Under the pieces are notes generated by a model. It was not told where the DNA came from. It made no database searches and worked only from the letters and a program-made list of their open reading frames with translations. Below, piece after piece: positions 50,901 to 56,900 of a stretch of DNA of 64,000 nucleotides. Position numbers and translations under genes: made by a program. The stretch's first letter is position 1; each line of letters opens with the position of its first letter. The DNA comes from Octopus vulgaris (Eukaryota), in NCBI GenBank assembly GCA_951406725.2, contig OX597814.1, positions 217,558,001 to 217,622,000 on the forward strand, given 5' to 3'.

Positions 50901-53900
50901 CCCAACACCTTCAGTGCTGAGACCACCAGATCATGTGATTCCAACCTTGTCAATGACTGACACTAAATACCAAACTATGATTTGGTATCAGCAAACATTA
51001 AGCCTTTCACTAATATTTATTTATGAGAATCTCAATGTATTGTAATAGCTATATATTTATTTCAAGTACCATAGTCAACGTTGCCTTTTGTTAGTTTTGG
51101 GGTTGGTTAAAAAATAAGTACTAGCACGGTGCCAATGCTGTCCACTCTACGACCAACTGTCAAATTCTTTGTTTACTGGGCCAAGTATGGGAGAACCTAG
51201 AGAGTATCTGCTCTCAACTATGTAGGAACAGAAAACAACAATGTTACTAAGGATTATTTGACTGCAAGTGACATGTAGAGAGGAAAGAAGGGCAGAGAGA
51301 GCTGAGAGAGAGGAAAGCAGAGAAGATAATGGAGAAACAAAGGGACTGGTGATACAATTGGGTGGGGGACAGAAACAATGTAGAAAAAAAAAAAGGTGAA
51401 AACAGAAAACCTGACAATTCCACATTAGACAATTCATTATTTGAAAGTGTTAAACATAACTGATAAAGTTTAAGAGTTTTAAACTGATTAGAGTCCAAAA
51501 ATCTTACTAAGTGCCATTTCATGAATTCTATTAAGTAAAAAGCTGGCATTTCCCTTTTAAGTTATATATATTTAGTTATTCTGCTTATAATCCTTTACAG
51601 AGTTCTGTAATAGATTTCACTTTATAGCAAATTTTAGTTTAAATGGGACTCTAGCAAAATAGCGTTAAAATGTGAGTAACTTAAAAAAAAAAAAAGTTTA
51701 GCCAATATGATTAATGAAATGCTACTTAAATATAGAATAAAAGGTGGGCAATTAACAATTTAACCCTTTCGTTACTAACCCGGCCGAAAAAATTTTTGGT
51801 TCGTAATACCAACCCGGCCGAGAGAACCTATTGTTATTTAAATGTAAATTTGAACCCCAATCTCGGTATATTTGTTAAAACATGTGATTTCATTGGCTTA
51901 TAGTATCCGACATTGCTTGAAGTGATATCTCAACTCAGTAAATTTTGGGAGATTTTTTTCCACATTTTTTTCGGCATTGATTTTTCTTCAACTTTGAAAA
52001 TGGATAGGAGTTTCATGTTATCAAGCATTGATTCCGAATTTAAAGCTTTTTCTACGGAAAATAGGGAGATATCGAGAAAAAGAATGAATGAGATCCTAAA
52101 GCACGTGGTATACAATAAAGAATAGGATATTTTTTTATCCGTTAACCGAAAGCAGCGAAGTAAAAAACTTTTTAAATGTTTTTATTAGCAATTCCAGTAT
52201 TTCAGTTTATTCCACCTTTATGGTACACCTGTTGTGCATTAAATTCAACTGATGATCTTGTGATGTGCACAATTCTTCTTTATCAAAATTTTGTTGCATA
52301 CCATTTGAATATTAGCTGATGATTCATTTTCTATAGTGATGTTTAAACAAAATTTTAATATTTTTACCTTTTGCTCAATTTACCTGTAATTAAAGTCACT
52401 TTGAGACAAAAGTTATGCAATAGAATTGATTAAGAACCCTTTCTTTAATTATGTTCCAAATATCACATTAATATGTTGATAAGTAAAAAAGTTAGTTATT
52501 TAATGAAACAAGCCTAAATTCATGATTATTTTAGAATTTAATTGAAACTCATGGGGGGTGTATTTTGGTCAGAAATATAGTAACGAAAGGGTTAATCCAC
52601 TAAAACTGCTATGACAAAGATACCTACAATGTTATCTCAGAAGTCATAAAGAACTCAAAGCAAAATGGATAGAATTCAATAACATTGTTTGATGAAATTT
52701 GTATAAAAATTTGCAAGGAACTGTTAGACTACTACTGAATTGTGTGGAAATGTGACAACAAAACAAAGAAAGGCGCGCACACACACATATATATATATAT
52801 AGAAATAGGCATGTAAAGTGCTATTAATGAACGGGAAAAAATGAAAGATAATGAAAGGACATGAAAGAGGGTGGAAGAGAGTAATGAGTCAGAAAATGAA
52901 AAAAAGAAAAAAAGATGAGCAAGCCCAAATATTAACATTATGAACACTTAAAAGTGTCAGTTATTGGAAAAAGAAAACAATGCCAAAATGCAGATATTTT
53001 TCACTTGAACATGAAAATCTAGACAAGAATGCAATTGAAATTATGTTGTTGATTATTTTTAGTTGAACGGGACCATCAAAGCTTCGTTAAACCTCTAAAT
53101 TACAAAAGATGCAGAAGCTGTTATATGTAAAACATCAAAATTCTGCCTATAACTTTATTCCAATTCTAGCTAGTCATTTCTTGTCTCGTGTTTGTCTATA
53201 CTTGCTGCAGAGACAACAGATACATTTCAATGGAAGTCAAGTAAAAAATAAACAAAAAAAAAAGACGAGTTTGGGAGTTCAAGCAGCCAAAATTGAAATT
53301 CAACAAATACATCAAATATTGGAACAGAACAGAGATTGACAACTATTCCACTAAACATCAAAGGTAGATAAACACTGATTGCTGCAATTAGTGTACTTAC
53401 TTTAAGTTTTTCATGATTATCTCTGTCATTTTCTTCCGAGGTAGTTTTACCATCTTCATGTGTCTCAGTTCGTAAATCCCTGCTATCTCTTAGGTCACGT
53501 GCATCTCTGCCTTCAACACGTATATCTCTACTTTCTCTCATATCTCGGGAATCTAAAATAACCTCTCTTGGTTCCCGGATGTCTCTTGTCTCACTACGAG
53601 TATCACATGTTTCCCAAACATCTTGTGAGTCTCCTCGGGGTTCTCTAGGTTCACGTATGTCTTGAGATTCAACACGTACATCCCTCTGATCACGAATCTC
53701 ACGGGTTTCAGGGCGCACATCTCTAGCATCACGAATGTCTCTCGTTTCTCCACGCCCCATGTCCCTCGGTTCACGAATATCTCGTGTCTCTCCACGCATG
53801 TCTCTGGGTTCTCGAATGTCACGTGGCTCACCACGCACCAATTCCCTAGTTTCACGAATGTCTCGAGGCTCATTACGCCCAATGTCTCTTGGTTCAGCAC

Positions 53901-56900
53901 GCACATCTCTCTGCTCACGAAGGTCTCGTGGCTCAGCACGTACATCCCTTGGTTGGCGAATATCTCGTGGTTCAGCACGCACATCCCTTGGTTGGCGAAT
54001 GTCTCGTGGTTCAGCACGCATATCTCTTGGCTCACGAATGTCACGTGGCTCGGCACGTACATCCCTAGATTCACAAATGTCCCGTGGCTCGGTACGAACA
54101 TCCCTTTGTTCACGAATGTCTCGTGGTTCGGCACGCACATCCCTTGGCTCGTGAATGTCTCGTGGTTCAACACGCACATCCCTTGGCTGGCGAATGTCTC
54201 GTGGTTCAGCACGCACATCCCTTGGCTGGCGAATGTCTCGTGGTTCAGCACGCACATCCCTTGGCTGGCGAATGTCTCGTGGCTCAGCACGCACATCTCT
54301 AGGTTCATGAAGGTCTCGTGGCTCTGTTCGAACATCCCGTGGCTCAACACGGACATCCCGTGGCTCACGCATGTCCCTTGGCTCAGCACAGACATCTCTC
54401 GGCTCACGAACATCTCGGGATTCAGGACGCACATCTCTTGATTCTCGACTATCCCGTGGCTCAGCACGTACATCTCTTGCTTCTAGAATATCTCGTGATT
54501 CAGCACGTGCATCCCTTGGCTCACGAATGTCACGCAGCTCAGTACGCATATCTCTTGGTTCGCGAATATCACGTGGTTCAGTACGCAGATCCCTGGGTTC
54601 ACGCATGTCACGTGGTTCAACACGTACATCCCTTGTTTCGCAAATGTCTCGTGTCTCAGGACGTACATCCCGCTGATCACGAATGTCACGGGGTTCAACA
54701 CGCACATCACGAATGTCATGTGGTTCCCCACGTAAGTCGCGTGCTTCGCCACGTACATCTCTTTGCTCACGAATGTCACGTGTTTCACCACGCACGTCTC
54801 TCTGTTCTCTAATATCGCGTACTTCACTACGCACATCCCTTTGCTCGCGAATGTCACGTGCTTCACCAAGCACACCTCTTTGCTCCCGAATATCACGAGG
54901 TTCATTACGAACATCTCTTGGTTCTCTAATGTCTCTGGGCTCAGCCCGTACGTCCCTCTGCTCTCTATTGTCATGAGGTTCAGTACGTGCATCTCTCTGT
55001 TCCCTGATGTCTCTTGGCTCTACTCGTGCATCTCTCGGTTCCCTAATATCTCTTGGCTCCACCCGTGCATCCCTCTGTTCCCTCATGTCTCTAGGCTCTC
55101 CCCGTGCATCTCTCTGTTCCCTCATGTCTCTAGGCTCTCCCCGTGCATCTCTCTGTTCCCTTATGTCTCTAGGCTCTCCCCGTGCATCTCTCTGTTCCCT
55201 CATGTCTCTTGGTTCAGCACGCACATCATTTCTCTGCTCACGGACATCTCTTAGTTCACGAATTGCATCTCTTGGTTTCTGAAGGTTCATTGCATCACCA
55301 CGAGTATCTCGTATATCTCTAGTCTCTCCACGGACATCTCTTATTTCACGAGAATCACCACGGATATCCCTGTCTCGTGGTTCAAGACGGATATCTCTTG
55401 ATCCCATACGCGAGTCTCTGGTAGTTTCAATACGACAATCTCTACCATCCAGTCGAATATCTCTAGCTGGTTCATGTCGGGTATCTCTACCTTCAAGTCG
55501 AATGTCTCTGGTTGCATCAAGGCGATTATCTCTTATATCATGACAGATATCTCTATTTGAATCTAATCTTGAATCTCTGGGTTCAAGACGAATCCCTCTA
55601 TTTGGTTCAAGGCGTATATCTCTTGGTTCATGACGTAAATTCCTTGTTGGTTCAAGTCGTGCATCTCTTGGCTCATGGCGTATGTCACGAGTAGGGTCAA
55701 GATGAGTATCTCTTGACTCGTGGCGCATGTCCCTGGATGGATCAAGACAAGGATCTCGATTTTCATGTCTTATAGCTCTTGGTGTTTCCATGCCATGACG
55801 CAGTTCTCGTGGAGATTCAAGAAGAGGATCTCTAGGTTCATGCCGAATTTCCCTAGAGGATTGAAGACGGCAGTCTCTTGCTTCCATGCGAATATCTCTT
55901 GATACACCACGCATTTCTCGTGGTTCATGGCGAATGTCTCTGGGTTCAATATGAATATCGCGATTTTCACCGCTTATATCCCTATTTTCACGCATGTCTC
56001 TAGCTTCAAAACGAATTTCTCTAGGTTTTCCACGCCCATCTCTAGTTTCACGAATGTGATCTAGATTAATGTCCCTAGGTTCACCACGCATATCGCGGCG
56101 TATGTCTCTAGGTTCAGCACGTACTTCCCTATTTTCATGGCGAATATCCCTTGGTTCACCACGAATTTCTCGTGGATCATGACGAATGTCCCTTGGTTCA
56201 CCACGTGTTTCCCGTGGATCATGGCGAGCATCTCGATTCTCAGCACGTGTTTCACGTGGATCTCTATGTTCTCTTGCTTCACGCAAGTTTCCTCCTTCAG
56301 TACGTATTTCCCTTGCTTCACGGTGTTTTTCCCGTTTCTCTTCATTTCTGTAAAAGAAAAAGAAAAGTGGAAAATAAATTATTGCAGCATAAGAAAAGCA
56401 TATATCAAAGAAAACATTTTTCTAAAATACTTAACTCTTCTTATATTTCTAACACTGCATATCTATTTCAATATTCAGCTGATCTTTGGAAAACAATTTA
56501 GAATTGGCTCACACTATTATCTAGATATATTATAAATATAACCACCCCAATAAAGATTAAAACCCACTTTTAGTAAATGTTTATATCTTCATTGTCAGTA
56601 AATTACTTTTATAATTGCTCAAGGATGTATTTATGAAATTGCAGGTTGTTTAAACCCTTCAACTATAATCTTTATTATATCTTACCCACTGCGAAAAGCT
56701 ACAGGGAAAGTTTATTTTTTAAAAAATTTGTCTTAATTTTTGTGTGGGGCCTAAGAACTTTATTTACATAAATTTCTTCCCTAATTTTGTTTTCCGAAAT
56801 ACTAATATCCTCTAACTAATTGTTGTTGGTAGTGACACTGGTATCACTTTTGTAAAACATGTATGATCACTCAATTGAACTATATTATAATGCACTAAAA

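Follow-up and report, generated by a model that had tools for sequence, protein, structure and literature searches.

The PRRC2 proteins (PRRC2A/B/C, or BAT2, and Drosophila Nocte) are essential, largely disordered partners of eIF3 and eIF4G2 and hubs of stress granules. In humans, they bind both factors, promote leaky scanning, and enter stress granules (PMC10287950; 10.64898/2026.02.24.707808), and invertebrates have a single PRRC2 (10.64898/2026.02.24.707808). For human PRRC2B, residues 1-150 bind eIF3, residues 1-450 bind eIF4G2, and residues 751-1500 bind RNA (PMC10287950). Here, we describe the PRRC2 gene in a 64,000-nucleotide stretch of the Octopus vulgaris genome (GCA_951406725.2, contig OX597814.1, positions 217,558,001 to 217,622,000; hereafter the window, in whose own numbering all positions are given), where a single giant exon encodes almost nothing but Arg- and acid-rich tandem units. 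To judge from its sequence, this is an Octopus-wide (three species), transcribed, and selected kilo-residue alternating-charge repeat in a single-copy translation regulator.

Repeats of mixed charge have been described in other settings. Arg-rich mixed-charge domains (R-MCDs) are defined as longer than 60 aa, with charged residues making up a fraction (FCR) of at least 0.7, a positive-to-negative ratio between 1:0.7 and 1:1.3, and Arg strongly enriched over Lys (Greig et al., 10.1101/771592). In the same work, long RD dipeptide repeats condense, and Arg is required for this. Evenly mixed polyampholytes, in which the charge-segregation parameter kappa is low, form expanded chains and phase separate weakly (PMC7503639), and an alternating (DR)12 peptide does not phase separate, while (DR)50 enters speckles in cells (PMC9324279).

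PRRC2 identity of the gene

By all of the features examined here, the encoded protein is a member of the PRRC2 family. Residues 1-172 of the public O. vulgaris gene model P0003 match the BAT2_N domain (PF07001; E 5e-45, 154.7 bits against a cut-off of 25), and the GWAG..DY..FSDDE motif, the WR..VER.R.RREEE helix, the RG-rich middle, and the Q/P-rich C-terminus of PRRC2A/B/C and Nocte are likewise present, with RGRG/RGG motifs at residues 2063, 2243, and 2331-2338. The first-pass annotation of the window had named the gene PRRC2, and the domain, both motifs, and the helix bear this out. The repeat begins at residue 396, directly after FSDDEE, which displaces the helix to residue 1461 and puts the RG motifs at 2063-2338. 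A single BAT2_N locus was found in the genome (G000), consisting of two exon matches just upstream, up to ~4.7 kb past the window end, a single-copy state that is expected for an invertebrate. No second genomic copy of the repeat was found in this assembly, all 15 of 15 matches lying inside the exon described here.

Exon structure and transcription

The exons that frame the repeat, in the order of transcription, are as follows.

62475..62580, minus strand: further upstream PRRC2 exon, proline-rich, placed by the joint 62475>60095
59916..60095, minus strand: upstream exon with the conserved GWAG..DY..FSDDE region motif, placed by spliced joints and sequence
57974..58021, minus strand: 48-nt upstream exon, phase 2-2, joined to the repeat exon in 4/4 runs
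53401..56347, minus strand: giant PRRC2 repeat exon, 2947 nt, 982 aa, phase 2-0, equal to P0003 residues 396-1377
47984..48085, minus strand: 102-nt exon immediately 3' of the repeat exon, joint 53401>48085 in 4/4 runs
46106..46198, minus strand: next exon, 93 nt, encoding ..MAYEYMG.., joint 47984>46198
45778..46005, minus strand: conserved PRRC2 helix exon, joint 46106>46005
44977..45078, minus strand: 102-nt in-frame cassette exon, with inclusion and skipping both found in 4/4 runs

The repeat exon is bordered by a pyrimidine-rich acceptor, TTTTACAG, and a GTAAGT donor (GT-AG), has no stop codon over 982 aa in the coding frame against 148 and 17 stops in the other two, and shares its reading frame with the exons of the GWAG..DY..FSDDE motif. 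Joined together, the six exons between 60095 and 45778 encode 1199 aa that match P0003 exactly from residue 320 onward. The annotated single 2947-nt exon in frame with the PRRC2 motif is an accurate description.

To follow splicing, contigs were mapped on positions 43000-62800 for four runs, out of 23 listed: X1, X6, and X9 from organism A and X20 from organism C, which together represent four studies. GT-AG joints at 62475>60095, 59916>58021, 57974>56347, 53401>48085, 47984>46198, and 46106>46005 were present in all four, which identifies these runs as spliced RNA, a status that rests on the joints. It is clear from these results that the repeat exon is transcribed and is part of the main spliced form, and the concern that it might be unexpressed finds no support in any of the four studies. 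Of the two flanking junctions that had been predicted, 57974>56347 was recovered in every run, whereas 53401>46198 was wrong because the overlooked 102-nt exon sits between, its 3' side joining 46198 in 4/4 runs. Contig depth over the repeat exon reached 331-851 in the end contigs of X1, X9, and X20 and ~50 in X6, compared with 0-0.4 in a repeat-free intron bin, although contigs give no expression level and lose rare isoforms. No joint that skips the repeat exon was found among the 15 joints listed, beside which there are 197 further ones. In silico, such skipping leads to a stop inside the following exon, in agreement with the annotation's statement that the 2-0 phase makes skipping shift the frame. 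The argument drawn from this phase, that the exon is constitutive, is correct as reasoning, but the phase itself was probably inherited, as a phase-2 intron just 3' of the FSDDE motif appears likely, from our reading of the sequences, in three unrelated animal loci.

Over the exon itself, the contigs fall into three pieces (56347-55180, ~55100-54253 or 54445 in X20, and 53991-53400), with the breaks located in near-identical 39-nt units. The pieces listed leave 53992-54252 and ~55103-55179 uncovered, both of which are near-perfect repeats. In X1, the depth of the middle piece (473) was similar to that of the ends (331 and 561), which argues that the main transcript retains the middle of the repeat. 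One public gene model, P0004 of O. sinensis, lacks an internal part of the array.

53914..54705, minus strand: 792-nt in-frame stretch with GT..AG ends, missing from O. sinensis P0004 by gene-model alignment

A minor internal splice, a deletion allele, or read mis-mapping are all possible sources of this gap. In 4/4 runs, contigs pass both of its ends unspliced, so these candidate internal sites provide no indication that most of the repeat is spliced out. Compared with the other O. sinensis model (X2), the one lacking the stretch (X10) contains one additional 13-mer, a hint of polymorphism in the number of units or of mis-mapped reads.

Units, composition, and charge pattern

The exon encodes R 261, D 143, E 133, P 78, K 7, F 1, W 1, and Y 0. 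Its core (aa 20-955) contains 2 Lys, 1 Phe, 1 Trp, and no Tyr, exactly the scarcity of Lys and aromatics that had been noticed at first, and its R:K ratio of 254:2 compares with 172:188 for everything outside it in the protein. Throughout, the basic unit is E-x-R-[DE]-hydrophobe-R, with ~100 occurrences at a spacing of 6, 7, or 8, and four zones can be distinguished.

55867..56289, minus strand: zone 1 (aa 20-160), 7/14-aa EPRDIRH-type units; autocorrelation 0.41 at 14 and 0.35 at 7, periods 21 and 42 in Tandem Repeats Finder (TRF)
55357..55866, minus strand: zone 2 (aa 161-330), degenerate 15-aa (7+8) units; autocorrelation 0.50 at 15, TRF period 45
53896..55215, minus strand: zone 3 (aa 378-817), 32 13-aa (6+7) units of EPRDIR + EPRDVRA type; pattern count and TRF
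53482..53895, minus strand: zone 4 (aa 818-955), degenerate 13/14-aa units; TRF, pattern, and autocorrelation

The grading from 7-aa through 14-aa to 13-aa units described by the first-pass annotation thus holds for its beginning and end, with a 15-aa zone lying between, and its estimate of roughly 40 13-aa units comes down to 35 under a strict pattern, 32 of them in the three uninterrupted blocks of zone 3.

The charges nearly cancel, with 268 positive and 276 negative residues, an FCR of 0.55, and an NCPR (net charge per residue) of -0.008. The sign alternates between successive charged residues in 93% of cases, the running charge stays within -5 to +4 along the whole repeat, kappa is 0.016 (0.11-0.16 in 5 shuffles), and the sequence charge decoration (SCD) is -0.50 (-1.25 to -15 in 200 shuffles). 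As both parameters lie outside the shuffle ranges, a chance origin of the alternation is excluded. There is 1 RR and no RGG, Pro makes up 8%, aromatics number two, and charge blocks are absent. A single-sequence AlphaFold2 prediction for aa 378-817 gave a mean predicted local distance difference test (pLDDT) score of 39.9 and a predicted template modeling (pTM) score of 0.13, with no secondary-structure elements; a folded tandem-repeat (solenoid) domain would be marked by a confident regular fold.

Selection on charge and on arginine

Among the 32 contiguous 13-mers, which are related by descent and whose pairwise comparisons are therefore non-independent, the proportions of nonsynonymous (pN) and synonymous (pS) differences were 0.163 and 0.665, respectively, for a pN/pS of 0.245 (bootstrap 0.22-0.27). 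Charged columns were far more constrained (pN 0.078, pS 0.79) than uncharged columns (pN 0.31, pS 0.51). The near saturation of synonymous sites shows that the array is old and is maintained at the protein level.

Comparison between species points in the same direction. The repeats of O. vulgaris and O. bimaculoides differ at 17 of 965 aligned positions, and R, K, D, or E is not involved at any of the 17, although 64-78% of nonsynonymous changes would be expected to touch a charge under three mutation models (P <= 4e-8). All 4 interspecies indels are net neutral, net charge is -8, and the Lys count of the repeat is 7 in all three species. Run X20 contains 11 listed differences, 6 synonymous and 5 nonsynonymous (681 versus 2265 sites). 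No charged residue is affected, and all but one of the 5 nonsynonymous differences fall at sites already among the 17. Lys is one transition away from the Arg codons AGA and AGG. Yet among 48 neighboring-unit codon pairs with AGA/AGG, there were 14 AGA<>AGG, 7 other synonymous, and 2 R<>H changes, and no R<>K change. The charged positions are thus under purifying selection, with Arg retained over Lys, and comparison of both units and species upholds the earlier description of an alternating polyampholyte whose positive charge is nearly all Arg.

Two further observations concern the repeat. At 53610, run X9 alone reads G in place of A on the transcript strand, which turns Thr into Ala and reflects either an allele or A-to-I editing. 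The ratio of observed to expected CpG is 1.05 in the repeat and 0.2-0.3 in introns; this retention is weak evidence, given ratios of 0.78-0.79 in two other Arg-rich exons.

Distribution of the repeat

The gene is already represented in public models, and the repeat is found in those of O. bimaculoides (P0002, 96% identical), O. vulgaris (P0003, identical), and O. sinensis (P0005 and P0004), with lengths of 968, 982, and 969 aa in the three species, respectively. No printed description of the repeat was found in the literature covered, which excludes subscription journals and supplements; in PMC6522055, PRRC2C appears only as a table entry.

Comparison with the family used the best 120 of 1009 PRRC2 matches, of which 119, a redundant set, are from outside Octopus and comprise gastropods, bivalves, nemerteans, a brachiopod, chelicerates, lancelets, a starfish, and many fishes, with the human paralogues and Nocte lying outside it. 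In all 119, FSDDE and the helix are separated by a linker of 68-254 aa (median 152), compared with 1077-1091 aa in Octopus. The R-[DE]-hydrophobe-R motif occurs 98 times in the octopus protein and at most 4 times per protein in the others. Among the 24 highest-ranking matches from outside octopus, 23 could be parsed, and in these the stretch from FSDDE to RExW consists of 39-135 aa of mixed R/K/D/E, against 998 aa in octopus. From this matching short charged linker, the exon can be read as an old short charged linker that was expanded internally. The two longest of these stretches, from the snail Gigantopelta aegis (P0013, 114 aa) and the nemertean Lineus longissimus (P0022, 135 aa), are RD-rich and could represent either an ancestral seed or a parallel expansion. 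The G. aegis expansion after FSDDE contains RDVRGDAREREMR, which is near the octopus motif.

The statement that no such repeat is known in vertebrate or Drosophila PRRC2 accords with its absence from 119/119 of the listed proteins, among which it is likewise not widespread in lophotrochozoans. "Lineage-specific" is justified only for Octopus relative to non-cephalopods: no squid, cuttlefish, or Nautilus orthologue is among the 120 of 1009 matches listed, in which a snail follows Octopus, and this says nothing on the presence of the repeat in those animals. A fragment search returned 14 matches, none recognizably cephalopod, and a metagenome scan returned 5 loci, with no comparable repeat in the 4 examined. 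Searching 1.84 billion representatives with the repeat gave at least 120 matches at E<=0.001, none with the PRRC2 motifs screened, and the 20 inspected were unrelated low-complexity repeats. The best ESM Atlas score, 0.79, was not meaningful, and no Pfam family matches the repeat.

What the repeat may do

Our favored reading, to which we would assign a probability of roughly 45%, is that the repeat is a long, soluble, self-neutralized disordered tether expanded from a short linker. In its favor are the strict alternation, the low kappa, which goes with expanded and weakly phase-separating chains (PMC7503639), and the failure of alternating (DR)12 to phase separate (PMC9324279). By orthology, octopus PRRC2 would share the interactions with eIF3 and eIF4G2 and the roles in leaky scanning and stress granules. 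In the one PRRC2 gene, an exon for a short charged linker would have grown via tandem duplication of an E-x-R-D-hydrophobe-R motif, and the insert would be placed, by comparison with human PRRC2B, between the N-terminal eIF3/eIF4G2-binding module and the conserved helix plus RG-rich RNA-binding region. This would extend the reach of the linker from ~5 nm to 23-29 nm by scaling laws. Charge alternation would cancel the non-specific stickiness of Arg toward RNA and ribosomes, the use of Arg for Lys would leave only weak guanidinium contacts, which may tune partitioning into cytoplasmic messenger ribonucleoprotein (mRNP) granules, and a 609-residue Lys-free stretch would resist ubiquitylation. 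Several points weigh against this reading. The placement of the binding sites derives from human PRRC2B, and in PRRC2C the eIF3 contact has been mapped to a coiled-coil helix at residues 506-591 (10.64898/2026.02.24.707808). A pure spacer has no need of Arg, whose enrichment over Lys is a hallmark of condensing R-MCDs (10.1101/771592), and a length of 980 aa may offset the lower charge density, as R-MCD condensation grows with length. The AlphaFold2 result is compatible with disorder and, coming from a single sequence without an alignment, is weak evidence; translation of the repeat is argued from splicing and selection. Constraint may be less strong than the charged positions suggest, as the repeat diverges by 1.76% between O. 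vulgaris and O. bimaculoides compared with 0.51% for the N-terminus and 0.90% for the rest, and the 264 aa missing from P0004 may mean that the full length is dispensable. Finally, an identical pattern of selection would be expected if the repeat were merely tolerated and kept harmless.

The first-pass annotation had proposed a module for tuning condensates or targeting speckles, and the part of that proposal that stands is a net-neutral, selected, Arg-rich polyampholyte. That this polyampholyte acts as an Arg-rich mixed-charge condensation module, driving self-assembly of PRRC2 or its targeting to nuclear speckles or stress granules, is unlikely in our estimation while deserving serious consideration. 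Arg is retained over Lys, condensation and speckle entry of RD repeats depend on Arg and length (10.1101/771592), alternating (DR)50 localizes to speckles (PMC9324279), PRRC2 proteins are stress-granule hubs with PRRC2B also engaged in nuclear-body interactions (10.64898/2026.02.24.707808), and ~100 evenly spaced R-[DE]-hydrophobe-R motifs would confer high valency. However, the FCR is below the 0.7 of the mixed-charge domain definition, the NCPR is close to zero while net positive charge raises cohesion (10.1101/771592; PMC9324279), and the repeat combines 8% Pro with a lack of aromatics, RGG, and charge blocks in a mainly cytoplasmic 3,600-aa translation factor; the failure of (DR)12 to phase separate also speaks against the proposal. 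With the FCR below the cut-off and neither charge blocks nor aromatics, a soluble, Arg-specific, Lys-free tether is more likely than a condensate driver.

It is also conceivable, if doubtful, that the repeat is a tolerated coding minisatellite, grown by slippage and unequal exchange, of no benefit, and policed to stay neutral, soluble, and Lys-free. The linker is a fast-evolving site that has undergone modest RD-rich lengthening in the snail and the nemertean, whole-unit indels separate the species, one gene model is short by 264 aa, and the repeat diverges faster than the remainder of the protein. Yet the units are old (between-unit pS 0.67) and the length has held at 968-982 aa in three species despite easy in-frame loss, charge-conserving R-to-K changes are excluded as well, and a well-expressed gene present in single copy is made ~27% longer by the repeat. 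Selection at the level of the mRNA, with purine-rich multivalent RNA captured in speckles in an interstasis-type feedback on PRRC2 dosage, would fit a coding strand of 61% purine and the frequent encoding of R-MCDs by GA-rich multivalent RNA (PMC12629991), but is highly improbable because the Arg codons are not GA-biased: AGA, AGG, and CGA account for 52% of 261 Arg codons in the repeat, whose commonest Arg codon is CGT, and for 63% of 79 across four other exons, so that this interstasis-type signature (PMC12629991) was rejected. In addition, synonymous sites are free to vary between units, and the codon bias is strongest in land vertebrates (PMC12629991). Equally improbable is an assembly artefact or internal splicing that removes most of the repeat. 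The GT..AG-bounded stretch absent from P0004, the two contig gaps, and the 197 joints outside the listing leave some room for it, but the repeat is found in three species at 96-99% identity, the internal sites are crossed unspliced in all four runs with a middle depth in X1 that matches the ends, and the signature of selection is at the protein level, by which this view is largely refuted.

The ~20-fold growth of the linker to a 980-aa array in which every charged position is conserved amounts to a natural experiment on whether long alternations of Arg and acid are stickers or inert spacers, and the array also bears on why Arg is kept over Lys. It marks, in addition, a change in the cephalopod translation machinery that has passed through annotation pipelines unremarked. 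Evolutionary controls are built in, as there are 32 aligned units, three species, and short seeds in other lophotrochozoans. It is a rather speculative and, on balance, improbable extension that the kilo-residue polyampholyte gives octopus PRRC2 a new length-dependent material property that rewires cephalopod control through upstream open reading frames (uORFs) and leaky scanning. If true, the property could be a condensate formed by the protein itself, or a reach from the 40S subunit to the mRNA that responds to salt or temperature, and the array would be the longest natural example for testing alternating-charge grammar encountered in this analysis. Even as a merely tolerated expansion, it would be a striking case of constrained coding-repeat evolution.

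Other features of the gene and the window

The conserved helix at 45778-46005 is altered in all Octopus models seen, ending in EKLKAP with Pro in place of Leu; in the 119 other proteins, the corresponding position of EKL[KR]xL is Leu in 107, Phe in 7, and Arg in 1, with 4 unparsed. The Pro may leave a shorter helix directly behind the repeat. An equation of this helix with residues 506-591 of human PRRC2C was not established. The 44977-45078 cassette is present in P0004 and P0005 and absent from P0002 and P0003, and a similar SRTxSESS motif occurs in many other molluscan PRRC2 proteins. A second RG-rich exon at 23784-24422 on the minus strand (~203 aa), present in P0003-P0005 and absent from the O. 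bimaculoides model X3, is probably a further cassette exon in the RNA-binding region. At 37275-37673 on the minus strand, a downstream exon of the same protein encodes a second short repeat with His/Trp-containing units.

Within the introns, 45586-45728 holds a 24-nt minisatellite of 6 copies with 98% matches, and high-copy transcribed repeats of very high summed contig depth, for which "short interspersed element-like" is a guess, lie at 61925-62076, 58140-58316, 48949-49609, and 44322-44982. Two intronic fragments on the plus strand read like mobile elements, which we take to be a retrotransposon of the type without long terminal repeats (endonuclease/reverse transcriptase; 25815-27817) and a mariner-type transposase (1637-2065).

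Comparison with known systems

Within its own family, the octopus protein stands apart by a linker between FSDDE and the helix that is a tandem repeat of ~1080 aa compared with 68-254 aa in 119/119, and by the EKLKAP end of the helix. In other families of RNA-binding proteins, the repeats of hnRNP M and the MEARA repeats of CstF-64 are short units of acidic, Arg, and aliphatic or Met residues in disordered regions. These repeats have far fewer units and different host families, and the octopus repeat is without a Pfam match.

The likeness to R-MCDs is considerable, as the opposite charges are near-equal, RD/RE alternate, and the R/K ratio is 127, compared with a published average of 9 (10.1101/771592). 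The 936-aa core is well over the minimum length of an R-MCD, the charge ratio of 268:276 falls within the defined range, and Arg outnumbers Lys by 254:2 in the core. The FCR does not reach 0.7 overall or in any of the 61-aa windows, with a maximum of 0.62, and because of this the repeat is not classed as an R-MCD. It further differs in having fixed units of 13, 15, or 7 aa with Pro and aliphatic spacers at a lower charge density and in its location in a mainly cytoplasmic translation factor. Relative to the tested 100-residue repeats of the (RD)50 type, it is ~10-fold longer with half their charge density.

A second point of comparison is the lysine desert, the sequence definition of which the repeat matches. 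Its longest Lys-free run is 609 aa, while in the 119 other PRRC2 proteins listed no run exceeds 281 aa (median 155). Like the lysine deserts described in PMC10169902, the octopus repeat is long, conserved, predicted to be disordered, and free of Lys. Those deserts are enriched among components of the ubiquitin-proteasome system, whereas the octopus host is an RNA-binding translation factor, in which the avoidance of Lys would limit ubiquitylation.

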